This document shows positions 7,801 to 24,323 of a stretch of 24,323 bases of DNA, one piece after another. This DNA comes from a virus (lineage: Duplodnaviria > Heunggongvirae > Uroviricota > Caudoviricetes), in the IMG/VR virus record IMGVR_UViG_2645727563_000003, positions 1-24,323 of that record; one strand, written 5' to 3'. The number at the start of each line of letters is the position of its first letter. Positions within the stretch are counted from its first letter, which is position 1. The notes beneath the pieces were generated by a model. It made no database searches, was not told the DNA's origin, and saw only the letters and a list, made by a program, of their open reading frames with translations. The position numbers and the translations under genes are program-made.

Positions 7801-8905
7801 ATGAGCCGACCAATGCAGAGATAGCAGCTCTTACATAAGCGGTCGTAGCAATCTGCGTGTTATTCGTACCCTGTGCAGCGGTAGGCGCAGTAGGTATTCC
7901 CGTTAATGCAGGACTTGCTAAAGGAGCTTTAAGAGCCAGAGCATTGTTGATAGTTGTGCTGAAATTCGGGTCGTTATTGATCGCAGCCGCTATTTCTTTA
8001 AGCGTATCCAGTGTGCCAGGTGCACCGTTGATAAGTGCCGTTATAGCTGCCTTAACAAAGGCTGTATTTGCGATCTGCGTGCTGTTTGTACCTTGCGCTG
8101 CCGTCGGCGCGGTTGGCGTTCCTGTCAGACTCGGGCTTTCTATTGGCGCTTTGGTATCAGCCAGCTCTTTTACAGACTTAACGGCTTTAGGGGTAGCCGC
8201 CATTGTTTCGCTGTCGCTGTTAGTTGCGCTACTGAGCTGAACTAATCCCTTTTGTGTTGTGCTTGCATCCTGCGCCGTATACTTGCTTTTAGCCAGATCG
8301 TAGGCTTTTTTAACCGCCAGCGAACTTGCAGCGACATCACTTCTGGTACTGGTTACAGAGTCGGAAATTTCAATGCCTATCGCGAGATCGATGCGGTCGG
8401 ATACATCTATCATTTCCTTAGTAATAGCAGATACGCCAGCAGGGATATTCACCGTACAAACAAGCAGTTCCCCATCTCCTAACTGATATGAATCGGTATA
8501 GGTTCTGGCAACAAATTCAGCCGCATGAATATGTGACGCGGTATTAACCTGATAAGAATCTTCTCCAAGGAGGTATCTTCCCTTCAGCACAATTGCATAT
8601 TTCTTACCTGCGCTAAGTGCAAGAGAAATATCCTTACGCTGCTGAATAGTTACCTGGTAGAATTCACCAATATTCACTGACGCCGCGCCAGCGGTTTTAT
8701 CACCATCCACTGAGGTGATTAACAGGTTCATCCCACCGCCAGGCTTAGGAAAAAAACCGGCATAAAATCCAGGGTCAACAATTCCCCTGAATTTTCGGTT
8801 TAGCGCGGCTGACAGATATGGTTCGTGGTATTGCACATCAGCCACCAGAGCCAACGACTCGGGTGATGGGTAAGTAACCGATGTGACAACTGTAACGTCA
8901 TTCAT
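4805..8905 (-). CDS. Tail fibre protein (S-like) with collagen-like repeats
   Basis: Start chosen at ATG 8905 (MNDVTVVTSVTYPSPE...), AAGGA 10 nt upstream, 11 nt after upstream stop; the longest ORF extends to 8992 but overlaps the upstream gene. At least seven ~40-aa repeats (PGVNTTGNQNTTGNAATATKLQTARTIGGVSFDGSANINL) and two ~75-aa N-terminal modules. Confidence 0.8.
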   Translation of the reverse strand: MNDVTVVTSVTYPSPESLALVADVQYHEPYLSAALNRKFRGIVDPGFYAGFFPKPGGGMNLLITSVDGDKTAGAASVNIGEFYQVTIQQRKDISLALSAGKKYAIVLKGRYLLGEDSYQVNTASHIHAAEFVARTYTDSYQLGDGELLVCTVNIPAGVSAITKEMIDVSDRIDLAIGIEISDSVTSTRSDVAASSLAVKKAYDLAKSKYTAQDASTTQKGLVQLSSATNSDSETMAATPKAVKSVKELADTKAPIESPSLTGTPTAPTAAQGTNSTQIANTAFVKAAITALINGAPGTLDTLKEIAAAINNDPNFSTTINNALALKAPLASPALTGIPTAPTAAQGTNNTQIATTAYVRAAISALVGSSPEALDTLNELAAALGNDPNFATTMTNALAGKQPLDATLTALAALATGANKLPYFTGKDTVAQTDLTSVGRDILAKTSTLAVIQYLGLRELGTSGEKIPLLSTANTWSARQTFNGGITGALTGNADTATKLKTARTIGGVAFDGSANINLPGVNTTGNQNTTGNAATATKLATARNINGVKFDGSGDVNINTLVSRGRVTALSGSTQGTAGIQMYEAYNNSYPTTYGNVLHMKGASAAGEGELLIGWSGTSGAHAPVFIRSRRDNTDAAWSAWAQVYTSRDSIPGVNATGNQNTTGNAATATKLQTARTIGGVSFDGTANINLPGVNVAGNQNTSGNAATATKLQTARTINGVLFDGSKNIELTPRSIGTINSTTMSFSGGAGWFKLATVTMPQASSVVSITLIGGAGFNVGSPQQAGISELVLRAGNGNPKGITGALWQRTSTGFTNFAWVNTSGDTYDIYVAIGNYATGVNIQWDYTSNASVTIHTSPTYTANKPTGLTDGTVYVIYSSHIKPTATDVGALPITGGNLNGGLTATGEIISKSGNGLRIAYGNYGFFIRNDGSNTYFMLTDSGNSLGTYNRLRPLIINNANGAVTIGNGLDVTGGINGSLNGNASTATKLQTARKISGVSFDGSADITLTAENVSAFALRATGTYADTSGAVPWNAESGAYNVTRSGDSYIVANFYTGVGSCRTLQIRAHHKNGGLYYRSSRDGYGFEEGWAQIYTKKDSIPGVNTTGNQNTTGNAATATKLQTARTIGGVSFDGSANINLPGVNTTGNQNTTGNAATATKLQTARNINGVPFDGTKDITLTPKDLDAYSKSEVQSALAGKQPLDNTLTNLSGKDVAGLLAYLQLGEAAKRDVGTGNNQLPDMSAFGMSRNGQTAWDILPNGMIRQVGTVTLTPVGNFNAQVLGGVTYYTHYYRVNFPRQFPNAQIATLATLASYSFSTQSSMAGKSLATHRDTDSGTDVSRTRFTVSYTTPNLGEIPTLHFEAIGY
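5425..7375 (-). repeat. Interspersed near-identical 120-240 bp coding repeats inside the tail fibre gene
   Basis: Copies at about 5425-5665, 5935-6025, 6715-6955 and 7255-7375 encode the 40-aa repeat; they also generate the long spurious plus-strand ORFs here. Confidence 0.7.
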
Positions 8906-8916
8906 CAAGCATATCC

Positions 8917-9351
8917 TTATGCTGTAGTCGTGTTTATGGCCATAACTGCGGTATATGTTTTGCCCACATACAGCGAGTCTTCCTGGACACAAATAATGGC
9001 GATTGGCTTGTTCTCGTTATCCAGAACAACCAGAGTGTTGAATGGGTAGTTTTTCCCTTTCTGCAACTGGCTTTGATCAAGGTCCATTCGGACAGTAATT
9101 ATCCCGCCTGAGTAGGTTGGGACGAGGTTGATGGTGCAAAATTTACTGGTCAGTTCTGCCAGCTCGAAAGCCTTTGGCAGTTCTCCAATCTCATAAGTGC
9201 CATCTCCTTTCTTAGTAACCAGTGAACTGGTACCGAAAACGGCCTTGCTGATTAAAAATCGAGAGCCTTTGTTAATGGACGATTCAGCGCGCCGCTGATA
9301 GTAATAGTCCAACAACTGACTCTTATAGAGGTTTGTTGAGACGTCAGACAT
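8917..9351 (-). CDS. Tail/baseplate-associated protein (R position by synteny)
   Basis: 144-aa ORF directly upstream of the fibre gene in the same operon; no motif recognised. Confidence 0.55.
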   Translation of the reverse strand: MSDVSTNLYKSQLLDYYYQRRAESSINKGSRFLISKAVFGTSSLVTKKGDGTYEIGELPKAFELAELTSKFCTINLVPTYSGGIITVRMDLDQSQLQKGKNYPFNTLVVLDNENKPIAIICVQEDSLYVGKTYTAVMAINTTTA

Positions 9352-18590: not shown

Positions 18591-19112
18591 TTATTTCTTT
18601 TCTGGACAAGTAGCATTTGGCTGAATTCGAGTTTCATTATCTTTAGTTGAAATAAGCACAGCAAGCCCCGTTGTAAACTGGCATGCTTTACCAACTTGAG
18701 TTGAAGTGAACACCTTAGTTCCTTCTTTATAAGTCAGTGAAACACCTTCAACAATTGTTTTATCACTAACCAAAGAACCAGCCGCTGCACCAAGAGCCGC
18801 ACCACCAGTACCGCCAGCTACAGCACCCAGTGTCGATGTGCCTTTAACATTATAACCGGCAACGCCCCCAGCAACAGCTCCCAGTACCGCACCAAATGTC
18901 TGTGCCGCTTCTTTATTAGCTTTATTATCAACTTTCACTTTAGCTGGAAGCACAGAGATAATATTGACTGTCTTTGTTTCCTGCTTCGAATTCAATTGAG
19001 CGGTATCATAAACATCGGCAGCATAATCAGCACCGCTAGATTGACACCCAGAAAGAAGAATTGCAGATACAACAAGAGCGCATAAAGTATACTTTTTAGA
19101 CATAAGAATCAT
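18591..19112 (-). CDS. Lipoprotein with glycine-zipper motif
   Basis: 173-aa ORF; lipobox LSGC after a hydrophobic leader, then GAVLGAVAGGVAGY...GAVAGGTGGAALGAAAGS. Start may be the ATG at 19103 instead. Low GC. Confidence 0.65.
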   Translation of the reverse strand: MILMSKKYTLCALVVSAILLSGCQSSGADYAADVYDTAQLNSKQETKTVNIISVLPAKVKVDNKANKEAAQTFGAVLGAVAGGVAGYNVKGTSTLGAVAGGTGGAALGAAAGSLVSDKTIVEGVSLTYKEGTKVFTSTQVGKACQFTTGLAVLISTKDNETRIQPNATCPEKK

Positions 19113-19393
19113 CCCAGAAAAACAAAAACCGGCGAGAAGTTACCACGAGAACGGAAAGTAAACAAGAATACTCCCATTGACTTATATCAATTAATCAACT
19201 TTTTATAAGCTATCCCTAACTTATTGTGTATAGCTGAAAAGTCAGAGACAAGTTCACCATCTGCATTATTTCTTAAGTTAATAGTTTATTGCTAACTTAA
19301 TTTATGTATCGACTATTGATATCCATCTTAAAGTTACAATATCCCTCTGCATTATTTTTCATCACAAATAATATATCTATTGCACGACACTAA

Positions 19394-19410
19394 TCTGCTC
19401 TAATAAATTT
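19394..19410 (+). promoter_or_regulatory. C1-type repressor operator candidate upstream of the c4/icd/ant unit
   Basis: tctgctctaataaattt matches the recalled P1 C1 operator consensus ATTGCTCTAATAAATTT at 15/17. Confidence 0.55.
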
Positions 19411-19448
19411 GTATTTTTAAGTCGCGAATGCTATCTTTTTGCATCATA

Positions 19449-19477
19449 TTGACCTTTTAATCGTTCAGGCTTATAGT
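19449..19477 (+). promoter_or_regulatory. Sigma70-like promoter candidate for the c4/icd/ant transcript
   Basis: TTGACC (19449-19454), 17-bp spacer, TATAGT (19472-19477), in an AT-rich intergenic region. Confidence 0.4.
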
Positions 19478-19589
19478 TTCGCCGTCGTAGCAAATTCTGC
19501 GACCGGGTTTAGCAGCCTGAATGATTGTGCGGACAGCCGCAGATATCCGATATTGCGGTATTTTTGTGTCCGTAAAACCGCGTTACGCC

Positions 19590-19700
19590 CAAATTATGGT
19601 GGGGCGTGATGGGGAGGCTTCGGCCTGCTGGTTTCACAATCGCCAGTCTGCTAACCCCGTCACGTCCTGCCACCTGTTTAGCAGCGGGTAGCAGGTTGTT
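19590..19700 (+). ncRNA. c4: Candidate c4-like antisense regulatory RNA in the ant leader
   Basis: About 450 nt of GC-rich non-coding leader with stem-loops; ctgctaa (19648-19654) is complementary to gtttagcagc, present at 19487-19496 and 19677-19686. Boundaries approximate. Confidence 0.35.
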
Positions 19701-19724: not shown

Positions 19725-19946
19725 ATGGTTAATGCCAATCCTTGCGCACGCCAAGAATTCATCTGGCGTTTCTATTCCTGCAAAAAACACCACTATCACT
19801 TCGTCATCGCAGCAACAGAAGACGAAGCACGCTCTCAATTGCCTGATGGCCCCTGCATTTTTACTGCCCGTTTTTCAACTAACTCGCGCAATTCACTTAG
19901 TTACTGGAACCTCCCCTTCTCTGCCGACGTTCAGGGGGTTTTATGA
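19725..19946 (+). CDS. icd: Small ORF translationally coupled to ant1 (icd-like position)
   Basis: 73-aa ORF, GAGG about 9 nt upstream; its TGA overlaps the ant1 ATG (ATGA at 19943-19946). Identity by position only. Confidence 0.4.
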   Translation: MVNANPCARQEFIWRFYSCKKHHYHFVIAATEDEARSQLPDGPCIFTARFSTNSRNSLSYWNLPFSADVQGVL

Positions 19947-20986
19947 AAAAACCTCTCGTCACCCGTAATGACATAGCCGAAGCGATCGCCCTGCATACTG
20001 CCTGTATGCCGACACGGGAGATCCCCGGCGCAATTGCCAACTATTTCATGATAACCAGACGTTTTTATACCCGAACAGATAAGGCTGTGATCAACAGGCT
20101 ACTGATAGCCGAGATCAGGGATTATTTGATTGAACAAGGACGTCTACGTTACGCAACGGTGGCAGCAGAAATGAGAAAGGAGGCACATAGAATGACCAGT
20201 AATAATTTGAATGTTAAAAAACCAGCATCTGTTGCTTCAGCTACGCCATCACCAGCTGTGAATGTTATCTCCAACACTGGAGACACAATCGACAGCCAGA
20301 CGCTGTTAAAGATGGTCAATGAAGCGCGTAAGTTATGTGGGGAACCAGAGGTTCGGAACAACAAATTCATCAAAAAAATACTCGACGAATTAGAAGGTGA
20401 GGACGGTTACACAAAAAGTGCAACCGTGCCGCCAGGTGGCGGTACGCCTATGGTTGTCATAACCATGACCTACAAACAAGCCCTGCGAGTCGCCGCGCGC
20501 GAGTCAAAAGCAGTCCGCCGTTCGCTGATCGACAAACTGGAAGAATTGCAGCAGGCAAACTCCCCTGCCCCATCGATCCCCCAAACATTACCAGACGCTC
20601 TACGCCTGGCTGCCGAGTTGGCAGAACAGAAAATGCAGTTGGAACAACAGCTGGTGGCCGCAGCCCCTAAAGTCGATTTTGCCGACCGGGTATCAGCGGC
20701 TAATGGAATCCTGATCGGGAACTTTGCAAAGGTCGTTGGACTTAAGCAAAACGCCCTTTTCTCATGGTTGCGCCAGAACGGCATTCTCATGGCTTTTGGT
20801 GCGCGCAAAAACGTACCGCGCCAGCAGTACATTAACGCCGGGTATTTCACGGTGAAAGAAGTGGTGCTGGATGATGAAAATGGCTACCAGATACGGCTGA
20901 CGCCCCAATTAACGGGTAAAGGCCAGCAGTGGTTAACTCGCAAGCTACTTGATGCTGGTTTGTTAAAACCAGTAGCAATAGGTTAA
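19943..20986 (+). CDS. ant1: Antirepressor Ant1 (long form) with KilA-C/ANT-type C-terminal domain
   Basis: 347-aa ORF; the C-terminal ~125 aa are ~65% identical to the C-terminus of the next gene (ALRLAAELAEQK...TGKGQQWL...LLDAG). Confidence 0.7.
   Translation: MKKPLVTRNDIAEAIALHTACMPTREIPGAIANYFMITRRFYTRTDKAVINRLLIAEIRDYLIEQGRLRYATVAAEMRKEAHRMTSNNLNVKKPASVASATPSPAVNVISNTGDTIDSQTLLKMVNEARKLCGEPEVRNNKFIKKILDELEGEDGYTKSATVPPGGGTPMVVITMTYKQALRVAARESKAVRRSLIDKLEELQQANSPAPSIPQTLPDALRLAAELAEQKMQLEQQLVAAAPKVDFADRVSAANGILIGNFAKVVGLKQNALFSWLRQNGILMAFGARKNVPRQQYINAGYFTVKEVVLDDENGYQIRLTPQLTGKGQQWLTRKLLDAGLLKPVAIG
20192..20986 (+). CDS. ant2: Antirepressor Ant2 (in-frame internal start within ant1)
   Basis: In-frame ATG at 20192 preceded by AAGGAGG (20177-20183) with 8-nt spacer; would give a 264-aa product starting MTSNNLNVKK. 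Confidence 0.5.
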   Translation: MTSNNLNVKKPASVASATPSPAVNVISNTGDTIDSQTLLKMVNEARKLCGEPEVRNNKFIKKILDELEGEDGYTKSATVPPGGGTPMVVITMTYKQALRVAARESKAVRRSLIDKLEELQQANSPAPSIPQTLPDALRLAAELAEQKMQLEQQLVAAAPKVDFADRVSAANGILIGNFAKVVGLKQNALFSWLRQNGILMAFGARKNVPRQQYINAGYFTVKEVVLDDENGYQIRLTPQLTGKGQQWLTRKLLDAGLLKPVAIG

Positions 20987-21149: not shown

Positions 21150-21950
21150 ATGCAACAAACATTCAATGCGGATATGAATATATCAAACCTTCATCAAAAT
21201 GTCGATCCTTCAACCACTCTGCCCGTTATTTGTGGTGTTGAAATTACGACCGACCGCGCTGGCCGTTACAACCTTAATGCTCTACACAGAGCGAGCGGAC
21301 TCGGTGCCCATAAAGCGCCAGCTCAATGGCTAAGAACGCTGTCAGCCAAACAGCTCATCGAAGAGCTTGAAAAAGAAACTATGCAGAATTGCATAGTTTC
21401 GTTCGAAGGCCGTGGCGGCGGTACGTTTGCCCATGAATTGCTCGCTGTGGAGTACGCAGGCTGGATTTCTCCCGCGTTTCGGCTGAAGGTAAACCAGACA
21501 TTTATCGACTATCGAGCCGGAAGATTGCAACCTGCTATTCCGCAGAGTCTCCCTGAAGCTCTCCGTTTGGCTGCCGACCTGGCAGAGCAAAAGCAACGGC
21601 TGGAGCAAAAAATGCTTATGGATGCGCCTAAAGTCGAATTCGCCGAACGCGTTGCTACCGCCAGCGGGGTTCTAATCGGCAACTATGCCAAAGTGCTCGG
21701 CCTGGGCCAAAACTATCTCTTCACCTGGTTGCGTGATAACGGAATTCTGATCGCAACCGGTGAACGCAGGAACGTCCCCAAACAAGAATACATATCCCGT
21801 GGGTACTTCACCCTCAAAGAAACCGTGATCGATACAAGCAACGGAAGCAGGATTTCTTTCACGACTCGTATAACCGGCAAAGGTCAGCAGTGGCTAATGA
21901 AGCGATTGCTTGATGCTGGTGTGCTGGTACCTGTCGCGGCTACGCGCTAA
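21150..21950 (+). CDS. kilA: KilA-N domain protein with KilA-C/ANT C-terminal domain (KilA-like)
   Basis: 266-aa ORF; N-terminus RYNLNALHRASG...FEGRGGGTFAHELLAVEYAGWISPAFRLKV fits the KilA-N pattern; C-terminus paralogous to Ant. Confidence 0.7.
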   Translation: MQQTFNADMNISNLHQNVDPSTTLPVICGVEITTDRAGRYNLNALHRASGLGAHKAPAQWLRTLSAKQLIEELEKETMQNCIVSFEGRGGGTFAHELLAVEYAGWISPAFRLKVNQTFIDYRAGRLQPAIPQSLPEALRLAADLAEQKQRLEQKMLMDAPKVEFAERVATASGVLIGNYAKVLGLGQNYLFTWLRDNGILIATGERRNVPKQEYISRGYFTLKETVIDTSNGSRISFTTRITGKGQQWLMKRLLDAGVLVPVAATR

Positions 21951-21979
21951 CAGACGTAGTAAGAACCACCAGCATTGTA

Positions 21980-22825
21980 ATGCTGGCTAAAGTCACTTTC
22001 CTGAGCTGTATAACGATGAGCGATTTTACTTTTTCTGGCTATGAATTGGCCTGCTTTGTAACACACTCCGGTCTATCCCGTAGCGCCGGGCATATCCTGT
22101 CGCAATGTGCAAATCTCGCGGCAACAACCAGTGAATACTTCATTCACAAGCCTCACCGCATGATCGCGGCAGAAACTGGTTATAGCCAATCAACCGTCGT
22201 TCGTGCATTCCGTGAAGCTGTAAACAAAGGAATTCTGTCTGTAGAGATTGTTATCGGCGATCACCGTGAACGTCGCGCTAACCTGTACCGGTTTACACCA
22301 TCCTTTTTGGCCTTCGCACAACAAGCCAAAAATGCGCTGATTGAAAGCAAATTAAAGATCTCTTCAGCGGCAACCAAGGTTAAAGCTGTTCTCGCTAAGA
22401 CATTGGCTTTATTTAATTTTTTATCCACACCCCCATGTCAAAATGATACCCCCTCCCCCTGTCAGGATGACGTGGCAATAAAGAATAAGAAGTCACAAGT
22501 TAAAAAAACAAAAAGATCAGTTTCCGGCGGTGCCGGAACGACCAGACTCAAAAAATTGACTTCATGGATCGCTGAGGCAAAAGCAAAGGCTGACAATCTG
22601 CGGTTATCCAAAAAGCGCGCTCAAAAACATGAGTTCAAGCAGAAGGTAGAGGCGGCAGCGCGGAAATATGCTTACCTGAAGAACAAGCGTTCTCCTGATA
22701 TTGGCGGGGTATCAAACTTCGATAATCTGCCGCATTGCATGACGGTAAACGAAGCTCTTAATGCGGTATTAGCCAAAAATAAAGATAACGAACAATGGGG
22801 TATACCGGTAGGATTCAGAGGGTGA
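21980..22825 (+). CDS. repL: HTH DNA-binding protein, RepL-like (lytic replication initiator position)
   Basis: 281-aa ORF, 30 nt after kilA stop; HTH-like MIAAETGYSQSTVVRAFREAVNKGILS; basic C-terminus. Alternative start ATG 22016 (MSDFTF...); neither has a clear SD. Confidence 0.6.
   Translation: MLAKVTFLSCITMSDFTFSGYELACFVTHSGLSRSAGHILSQCANLAATTSEYFIHKPHRMIAAETGYSQSTVVRAFREAVNKGILSVEIVIGDHRERRANLYRFTPSFLAFAQQAKNALIESKLKISSAATKVKAVLAKTLALFNFLSTPPCQNDTPSPCQDDVAIKNKKSQVKKTKRSVSGGAGTTRLKKLTSWIAEAKAKADNLRLSKKRAQKHEFKQKVEAAARKYAYLKNKRSPDIGGVSNFDNLPHCMTVNEALNAVLAKNKDNEQWGIPVGFRG
22429..22470. repeat. C-tract direct repeats with flanking A-rich tract inside the repL-like gene; candidate origin element
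   Basis: acccccatgtcaaaatga and ccccctgtcaggatga are adjacent imperfect direct repeats, followed by an A-rich tract at about 22490-22515. Confidence 0.3.
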
Positions 22826-22828
22826 TAG

Positions 22829-22845
22829 ATTGCTCTAATTATAAC
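22829..22845 (+). promoter_or_regulatory. Weaker C1-operator-like half match upstream of the AT-rich operon
   Basis: attgctctaattataac matches the first 11 consensus positions exactly (12/17 overall); lies 3 nt after the repL-like stop. Confidence 0.35.
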
Positions 22846-22993
22846 CATGCATACTTTCAACACCTCTAGTTTGCCATGAGGAAAACTCATAGGCGTCCTG
22901 GTAAGATGACGTAGTTAGCAAATCAGAACGTCCCATTATTGCAATTAATAAACAACTAACGGACAATTCTACCTAACAATAAGTGGAGTTAAC

Positions 22994-23698
22994 ATGTTGA
23001 ACCGAAGAACATTTAATGTATTCTGCGATGAATCCTGTCACCTACTAAATGATCATAATAAAGTCATGGTATTGGGTGCGCTTTGGTGTCCTGGCACTAT
23101 CACAAAAAAAATTGCTAGAGACATCAAGGGATTAAAATTAAAACACAATTTAAAACCTGATTTCGAAATCAAGTGGACTAAAGTATCTGCGTCCAAAGTT
23201 GAATTTTACTTAGAGGTCGTAGATTACTTCTTCAGCAACCCAGCATTGCGCTTTAGAGGTGTTGTTGTTCCTGATAAAGAGCAACTGGACCATGCTCGAT
23301 TCCATCAAGATCACAATACTTTCTATTATAAGATGTTTTTTTATGTCTTAAAAAACATAATAGAAAGTAACAACACATACAATATCTACCTAGATATAAA
23401 AGATACTTTAGGTATTGAAAAAATTGAGAAATTAAGAGGAGTTCTTCACAATGATCGCTATGATTACAATCATGAGTCGATAAACAGAATTCAACATATA
23501 CGATCTCATGAAGTGCAACAATTGCAGCTAACGGATCTTTTCATTGGTGCGTTAGGCTACGTTCATCGAGGAATGAATAGCAACGCGGGAAAAATCCAAG
23601 TCATAAACAGGATAAAATCACATACAAACAGGGAGTTACTAAAAAGCACTCTTCCAACAGAAAGTAAATTTAATATTTTCGTGTGGGAGGCTCGCTGA
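22994..23698 (+). CDS. Hypothetical protein, possibly DUF3800-like (N-terminal FCDES motif), first gene of AT-rich operon
   Basis: 234-aa ORF, AAGTGGAG upstream of ATG. AT-rich codons unlike flanking genes. Motifs NVFCDESCH, EIKW, SHEVQQLQLTDLFIGALGY; family assignment from memory only. Confidence 0.7.
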   Translation: MLNRRTFNVFCDESCHLLNDHNKVMVLGALWCPGTITKKIARDIKGLKLKHNLKPDFEIKWTKVSASKVEFYLEVVDYFFSNPALRFRGVVVPDKEQLDHARFHQDHNTFYYKMFFYVLKNIIESNNTYNIYLDIKDTLGIEKIEKLRGVLHNDRYDYNHESINRIQHIRSHEVQQLQLTDLFIGALGYVHRGMNSNAGKIQVINRIKSHTNRELLKSTLPTESKFNIFVWEAR

Positions 23699-24162
23699 TG
23701 CTTCAAATGCCAGATTTATTGTACTTCAATGGAAGTTGGCAAGAGTATATAGACGATGTATATGATGTTGTTAGAGAAGATATTTTAATCTCTAATATAA
23801 CGTTTAAGGGTCTCCCTGTTCGATTACGTTATTCACCGGAATATGATGGGAAAGAGTTCGGATTTTGGCATTTAGTATCAGAGGGAAAAATAGAAGAAGA
23901 ACGAATACCTGATCTTGAACGGTGTAAGCGGATCCGCTGGATCGCGCATATGATAAGGAATTATGACCATTGCGATATATCATGTTGGTCTGAAAGACGA
24001 GGACCAACTGAAGAGTGGGTAATCTGGAACGAGTGTGAAAACTACGTTGTTGTGCTATCCGCACGTAGAGACTATTGGCTTCTCAAAACAGCCTATGTTG
24101 TAACCTATGACAGTAAAATCAGAACACTCAAACAAAGCAGAAAAAGAGCACTTGGGACATAA
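23698..24162 (+). CDS. Hypothetical protein, second gene of AT-rich operon
   Basis: Start ATG 23698 overlaps the upstream stop (TGATG), GGGAGG 8 nt upstream; the track's longer ORF begins at GTG 23683. 154 aa, Cys/His cluster CKRIRWIAHMIRNYDHCDISCW, no family recognised. Confidence 0.65.
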   Translation: MLQMPDLLYFNGSWQEYIDDVYDVVREDILISNITFKGLPVRLRYSPEYDGKEFGFWHLVSEGKIEEERIPDLERCKRIRWIAHMIRNYDHCDISCWSERRGPTEEWVIWNECENYVVVLSARRDYWLLKTAYVVTYDSKIRTLKQSRKRALGT

Positions 24163-24170
24163 AAAAGCTG

Positions 24171-24200
24171 AACCCGACACATATTGCTATGTATCGGGTT
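24171..24200 (+). terminator. Hairpin after the AT-rich operon (weak terminator candidate)
   Basis: aacccgaca - 12-nt loop - tatcgggtt, 9 nt after the stop; no clear T-run follows. Confidence 0.3.
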
Positions 24201-24323
24201 CGATCGCTCTTTCTACGCATGGTAGATGAGTAAGGTAAATCTAACCGATCTACTTTAGCTTTTCAATAGCTAGCTATAACTTTCCGCACATATTCTTCTG
24301 ATAATTCCAGTATGGCGGTTGGG

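Follow-up and report, generated by a model that had tools for sequence, protein, structure and literature searches.

Near the end of a 24,323-nucleotide stretch of viral DNA (Caudoviricetes; IMG/VR record IMGVR_UViG_2645727563_000003, positions 1 to 24,323), referred to here in its entirety as the window, lies an AT-rich gene pair that corresponds to rlfA and rlfB of phage P1. Comparative evidence argues against the "replication-linked" name of these genes and for a widespread mobile cassette; we propose that rlfAB is a self-contained two-gene unit that serves phage defence, exclusion or abortive infection, and not lytic replication. We put the probability of this reading at roughly 45%, most of which applies to the pair being defence-type cargo and much less to the roles assigned to each protein. 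The upstream gene, rlfA (open reading frame (ORF) 1; positions 22994–23698, plus strand), encodes a 234-aa DUF3800 protein and predicted RNase H2-fold nuclease. The downstream gene, rlfB (ORF2; 23698–24162 from its ATG, plus strand), encodes a 154-aa alpha+beta protein that is the obligate partner of RlfA.

Identity of the Gene Pair

Sequence comparison identifies the AT-rich pair as the long-annotated rlfA and rlfB genes of P1. In megablast searches of phage records, the region was 97.4% identical to P1 rlfA/rlfB over 1372 bp of DNA and 98.7% identical to rapA/rapB of P7, a phage in which the homologs go by the names RapA and RapB and the same operator site is annotated. The nearest records include the P1-like phage-plasmid JL22 (99.9%) and the plasmid NZ_CP015997.1 of E. 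coli S51, to which the coding region is 100% identical. Aligned to P1 without gaps, 232 of 234 residues of RlfA and 152 of 154 residues of RlfB are identical, the four substitutions being G46E and E74D in RlfA and D50N and D90N in RlfB. The order kilA-repL-Op55-rlfA-rlfB is common to the window and P1, in line with the initial annotation of this DNA, which had noted that the position of the pair equals that of rlfA/rlfB. The same annotation had proposed that the genes could be divergent rlf homologs or a replacement module. This proposal is refuted by their full-length near-identity to P1, together with a similar GC content (0.364 in P1 and 0.368 here). Genes, operator and low GC content alike were already known from P1, and the family had been listed as a defence candidate before, so that the window itself holds nothing new.

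A classic model phage, P1 is also a workhorse of cloning and transduction. A GenBank record describes the rlf genes as "possibly associated with lytic replication", and the placeholder name has been kept since annotation. Among 5426 complete E. coli genomes, 121 (~2%) contain the coding region, nearly always on plasmids of roughly 85–115 kb. RefSeq names for RlfB vary between "oxidoreductase", "replication protein", "hypothetical protein" and no annotation at all; we rejected the name "oxidoreductase", which was supported by no search.

RlfA and RlfB Are Strictly Paired

We surveyed bacteria with one genome per species, covering 185,579 species genomes. Relatives of RlfB were found in 477 of them, as well as in viral contigs, both P1-like and others. 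Of the 80 bacterial loci kept, 79 encode an RlfA homolog directly upstream of RlfB, and the other is truncated at the edge of its contig; these loci also conserve the start/stop overlap of the two genes. We also took RlfA in viral contigs as the starting point; at 73 of 80 such loci, a hidden Markov model (HMM) recognised RlfB as the product of the next gene downstream. The other seven comprise one locus with no callable RlfA ORF, two cut by contig ends, two with only 474–480 nt downstream, and the loci L133 and L169. Pairing therefore extends to about 74 of 76 viral loci that could be assessed, including the one divergent RlfB found by eye. This protein, in L169 (4543–5229), has W57 replaced and was missed by the HMM. 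In L133 (4690–7384), the place of rlfB directly behind the rlfA homolog is taken by an IS21-like element with istA/istB-type ORFs.

Genomic Neighbors and Candidate Defence Models

Both proteins match models of the PADLOC candidate PDC-M04: RlfA matches model A (E = 2.2e-95) and RlfB matches model B (E = 3.5e-51), with the genes adjacent and in A-B order. The adjacency of A and B in PDC-M04 corresponds to that of rlfAB, and embedding in type I restriction-modification (R-M) operons fits an origin as a defence candidate. This embedding was evident from 123 immediately flanking genes counted at 68 loci from different species, where 19 encode HsdS and 13 encode proteins with an HSDR_N domain; SIR2, AAA_15/21, SymE and RhuM are also present. 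The hsd genes are all co-oriented with the pair, in the layouts hsdR-hsdM-hsdS-A-B or hsdM-hsdS-A-B-hsdR. In a metagenome-assembled genome of the Anaerolineales, the order is hsdR-mazE-PIN-DUF3800(rlfA)-rlfB-hsdM-hsdS.

Other settings are consistent with this picture. In Citrobacter loci the pair lies between RhuM and SymE, and in Cronobacter it stands at the end of an integrase-bearing island. Among three contigs that carry the same protein, P0007 (L003–L005), the RhuM-family gene is located immediately upstream of the pair (7988–9016); two of these contigs are from Citrobacter, and in the third, from a Logan run assembly, the pair is found just downstream of a P4-like satellite primase. A RhuM-domain candidate, PDC-S05, is reported to protect against T4, T5 and T7 (PMC12881386), which places the pair in a small defence islet along with a SymE toxin gene. 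A metagenome contig (L011, 5321–10471) encodes a 1556-aa Eco57I-type N6-methyltransferase with a C-terminal DUF3800 domain, followed by an RlfB-like gene; this locus is DISARM-like, with SNF2 and DEAD/MZB helicases, and adjoins two Cas13a genes.

The match to PDC-M04, the type I R-M, satellite and DISARM-like contexts, and the non-essentiality of the pair in P1 support a defence reading. An anti-phage role of rlfAB is plausible; the pair had been on record as a candidate, to which comparative support is now added. The initial annotation had raised such a role as a suggestion, for which PDC-M04 and the R-M embedding provide independent support, in both cases by association.

Several points weigh against the defence reading. 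PDC-M04 is an unpublished candidate for which no phenotype is reported, and the literature searched contained no mention of it. The PDC entries as a group are unpublished and unvalidated candidates (PMC11811056), and others among them failed on testing (PMC12409345). We likewise found no experimental report of an anti-phage effect for rlfAB in the literature searched. In an RNA sequencing (RNA-seq) study of P1vir infection, rlfA/B fall into the group of replication genes, and rlfB and repL are both named as early lytic replication factors (bioRxiv 10.64898/2025.12.28.696737); one would expect a system that protects the lysogen to be expressed in the prophage. Moreover, a strain-specific DUF3800 gene scored as "essential" in transposon sequencing (Tn-seq) of Legionella (PMC7811196), which would be antitoxin-like behavior. 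Finally, since RlfA has no sequence-level match to RNase HII, the fold by itself carries the catalytic mapping described below.

A more specific arrangement can be drawn by analogy. The anticodon nuclease PrrC is embedded in the EcoprrI type I R-M operon, and rlfAB resembles it in that a nuclease-type gene lies co-directionally within or at the end of a type I hsd operon. The two differ in that there is no sequence or domain relation, rlfAB is a two-protein system, and in P1 it is not beside R-M genes. By this analogy, an RNase H2-fold nuclease and a small His/Arg RNase-like protein could form a previously uncharacterised two-enzyme immune module that might act as a PrrC-like back-up guard of type I R-M. 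A phage that disables or evades restriction would unleash RlfAB on RNA or RNA:DNA hybrids, and P1 would have acquired its copy as a weapon against rival phages. We consider this arrangement quite unlikely.

RlfA Is a DUF3800 Protein With a Predicted RNase H2 Fold

The initial annotation had suggested DUF3800 for the first ORF, and the profile search bore this out: RlfA matches Pfam DUF3800 (PF12686) at 53.1 bits, well above the cut-off of 21 bits (E = 7.6e-14). An N-terminal DE and a C-terminal QxxD motif have been described for this domain (PMC7736814). These correspond in RlfA to the FCDES motif at residues 10–14 (D12-E13) and the SHE...LQLTDL block at residues 171–182 (Q178-L-T-D181). In the RlfA family D12, E13 and D181 are invariant and Q178 is nearly so (conserved in at least 90%); further invariant residues are S14, C15, H16, K60, W61 and K136. 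Homologs retain an invariant RNase H-type carboxylate set at >50% identity across phyla, and the predicted structure of RlfA has an RNase H2 fold. Based on fold and conservation, the catalytic carboxylates are likely D12, E13, D134 (or D137) and D181.

At the sequence level, RlfA is without detectable homology to RNase HII/H2A and differs from these enzymes in its extra invariant residues. Alignment of the RlfA profile with E. coli RnhB using hhalign gave a probability of 0.2 and no alignment, and there was neither a Pfam RNase_HII match nor a sequence match in the PDB. NCBIfam holds no family for either RlfA or RlfB. We also scanned positions 21900–24323 with Rfam at E ≤ 10 and found no DUF3800 RNA motif (DUF3800-I to XI) and no other credible RNA.

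DUF3800 proteins serve as effectors in retron type VII, and TPR-DUF3800 proteins are accessories of Cas12a2/a3 and type VI-F systems (PMC7736814, PMC10910872, PMC12669027). Like RlfA, these proteins combine the Pfam domain with both motifs and are predicted to adopt an RNase H2-like fold. In contrast, rlfAB has no reverse transcriptase, TPR or CRISPR component here, and has the small RlfB as partner. The constancy of DUF3800 across several immune contexts, together with the invariant carboxylate set, favors RlfA as the effector of the cassette. A cassette built around an enigmatic DUF3800 nuclease in P1 therefore offers an easy genetic system for DUF3800 function.

RlfB Belongs to a Family Without a Pfam Model

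In agreement with the initial annotation, which had recognized no family for the second ORF, single-sequence and profile searches matched RlfB to no Pfam or NCBIfam family and to no sequence relative in the PDB, with a best E-value of 1.3 for the RlfB profile against PDB sequences. A Pfam scan of 25 members of the RlfB family at E ≤ 10 returned noise and matched no family. The family is nonetheless large: among 1.84 billion proteins, 1790 representatives matched at E < 0.001; the 150 best-scoring of these are mostly stand-alone proteins of about 150–190 aa. Relatives with N-terminal extensions were also seen; by eye the extensions look spurious, and they contain no Pfam domain.

We computed conservation over 146 representatives with a median identity to the query of 34%. 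H58 is conserved in 100% of these, F56, W57, R69, R75, R78, W81 and W97 in 92–98%, and C76 in 89%. The near-invariant residues between positions 56 and 81 fall in a predicted helical region ahead of a four-stranded sheet. The initial annotation had drawn attention to a Cys/His cluster in this protein. The cluster is present (H91, C92, C96 and C112) but is not conserved in the family, and a zinc site was consequently rejected.

The strongest competitor to a defence role is a toxin-antitoxin addiction module, in which RlfB would be a small RelE/colicin D-like (BECR-fold) RNase toxin that RlfA, encoded first, neutralises. The cassette would then stabilise the P1 plasmid prophage or its carrier island, and any defence effect would be secondary. 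The His/Arg/Glu set of RlfB (H58, R69, R75, R78 and E62/E66) is typical of metal-independent RNases, and a Foldseek search of the RlfB model against the PDB returned a weak resemblance to RelE/colicin D RNases. Since this match was not significant (best E = 0.054), we treat the resemblance as a lead only. The profile searches against PDB sequences and Pfam that came back empty also count against this competitor, as may the placement of the near-invariant residues 56–81 in a helical region before the sheet. The overlapping A-B order resembles that of antitoxin-then-toxin operons, the hok toxin is alternative cargo at the same P1 site, SymE and PIN/MazE are neighbors elsewhere, and the "essential" Legionella DUF3800 gene (PMC7811196) would suit an antitoxin. 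However, RlfA lacks a DNA-binding domain, and invariant RNase H-type carboxylates at >50% identity across phyla are not expected of an antitoxin. Taken together, we regard an addiction module as unlikely, at about one chance in five. Truncated RlfA and RlfB variants come either from contigs in which kilA and repL are also called truncated or from deletion of both genes; being consistent with frameshift-prone assemblies or double deletion, they are uninformative as to which partner might be toxic.

Returning to the defence reading, the following sequence of events would account for these features. RlfA would act as the effector, a metal-dependent RNase H2-fold nuclease, while RlfB, made in stoichiometric amounts through translational coupling, would be the faster-evolving partner that binds RlfA, restrains or directs it, and senses infection. 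We infer that the two proteins form a complex, which infection by another phage would trigger. RlfA, once triggered, would cut RNA:DNA hybrids or structured RNA, such that replication of the invader is blocked or the cell is arrested. Expression would come from the cassette's own weak promoter, with the upstream C1 operator mainly halting kilA-repL read-through in the lysogen.

The Pair Is Optional Cargo in P1-Like Phage-Plasmids

We next considered the distribution of the pair among 516 P1-like plasmid records, defined as those that share repL with the window. It is carried by 100 of these (~19%) and missing from ~81%. In the records without the pair that were sampled, homology ends at 22839, inside the operator, or in a few cases slightly earlier, within repL. 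At the same junction, the alternative cargo is either hokD with a small ORF or an ail/lom gene with one further ORF. In published comparisons, rlfA-rlfB-pmgF appears as a variable region of low GC content (PMC9603915), and its replacement has been described for individual plasmids (PMC6906374). These findings support the view of the initial annotation that the genes are acquired cargo, and the best reading of the sequence data is that the pair is a swappable, horizontally mobile cassette.

This distribution also bears on the function implied by the original annotation, under which RlfA would act during P1 lytic replication on an R-loop or primer at oriL (within repL), processing it with RlfB as an accessory subunit. 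Such a role would fit the location of the pair, which directly follows repL/oriL and a C1 operator, the RNase H2 fold of RlfA, and the grouping of rlfA/B with repL in the P1vir RNA-seq (bioRxiv 10.64898/2025.12.28.696737). However, co-inheritance with repL/oriL and a need for lytic growth were not observed: most repL-bearing plasmids lack the pair, homologs also occur without repL, and genome-wide CRISPR interference (CRISPRi) in P1 found both rlfA and rlfB non-essential for plaque formation (PMC10695390). Chromosomal pairs without repL are found in many phyla, typically in R-M operons or islands, and the low GC content and cassette-borne promoter are marks of foreign cargo. A replication-linked function is therefore disfavoured by the optional presence in repL plasmids, the published variability and the CRISPRi result, and we judge it highly unlikely.

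Another role early in P1 lytic growth would be counter-defence, with the pair destroying a host immune RNA, multicopy single-stranded DNA (msDNA) or RNA:DNA intermediate, for instance one belonging to a retron or CRISPR system. P1 has other anti-defence genes, darA and darB. The link of the pair to C1 and its grouping with lytic replication genes in the P1vir RNA-seq are in keeping with this role, and an RNase H-type nuclease could conceivably degrade retron msDNA or R-loops. The co-oriented embedding in host type I R-M operons and DISARM-like loci fits host defence instead, and the family is listed among defence candidates (PDC-M04). Based on this genomic company and the optional cargo status, both replication and counter-defence are less likely than the defence reading, and we give counter-defence very little credence.

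Operator, Promoter, and Terminator

The 17-mer upstream of the pair, ATTGCTCTAATTATAAC (22829–22845, plus strand), lies directly after the repL stop codon and is base-for-base equal to the annotated P1 C1 operator Orlf (formerly Op55), confirming an operator-like site that had been noted initially. Plasmids with hok or ail/lom cargo (L092 and L094) retain ATTGCTCTAAT and diverge afterwards. Since the left half persists in plasmids with different cargo, the operator is best assigned to the repL backbone. Moreover, because the boundary between backbone and cargo falls inside the C1 operator, the operator core may mark a junction for recombination at a hotspot of cargo, which would lie between repL and bplB.

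A promoter-like site corresponding to PrlfA, which is annotated in P1 as a predicted sigma-70 promoter, is located at 22939–22967 on the plus strand (-35 TTGCAA, 22939–22944; 17-nt spacer; -10 GACAAT, 22962–22967). A consensus promoter scan did not call it. The pattern TTGmAC-N17-GAmAmT recurs ahead of rlfA homologs from Citrobacter, Cronobacter, Biostraticola and Scandinavium, four enterobacterial settings with unrelated flanks; such retention, in five contexts in all, suggests that the cassette moves with its own promoter. The -35 element of PrlfA is 94 nt downstream of the operator. Given this distance, C1 bound at Op55 would block read-through from kilA-repL, which we take to be its main effect in the lysogen, and would not occlude the cassette promoter. 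It is accordingly doubtful whether the cassette is repressor-controlled, as had first been proposed. The predicted fold of the 151-nt leader is not notable (z = -1.37).

At the other end, a terminator scan scored a hairpin with a 14-bp stem (24170–24201) as an intrinsic terminator on the minus strand; this hairpin closes the operon. Its T-run is on the minus strand, and pmgF, whose position is taken from P1, is convergent and beyond the end of the window. The hairpin is probably a terminator shared by rlfB and pmgF.

Layout and Composition of the Locus

The two ORFs form a translationally coupled unit, and the TGATG overlap reported in the initial annotation was confirmed: the TGA of rlfA (23696–23698) and the ATG of rlfB (23698–23700) have one base in common. 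Shine-Dalgarno-like sites precede the starts of rlfA (GGAG, 22985–22988) and rlfB (GGGAGG, 23685–23690). Relative to P1, there are nine synonymous and two non-synonymous codon differences in rlfA, with an identical tally in rlfB. This synonymous excess, together with homologs across many phyla, indicates that both ORFs are real genes.

Upstream of the operator are kilA (21150–21950), which encodes KilA-N plus ANT domains, and repL (21980–22825), the immediate neighbor of the operator and rlfA. Computed GC contents agree with the earlier impression that the pair is AT-rich against its flanks: the values are 0.352 for rlfA, 0.391 for rlfB and 0.368 for the pair, compared to 0.508 for kilA, 0.456 for repL and 0.468 for the whole window. 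Equally AT-rich segments of 1169 bp make up 1.6% of all such segments, and the ten with the lowest GC content are all at the rlfAB region. A second low-GC patch (0.34–0.36) is found at about 19000–19600 and may represent a further variable or cargo region. It lies upstream of an ORF at 19943–20986 that corresponds to ant1/ant2 by its position relative to kilA in P1.

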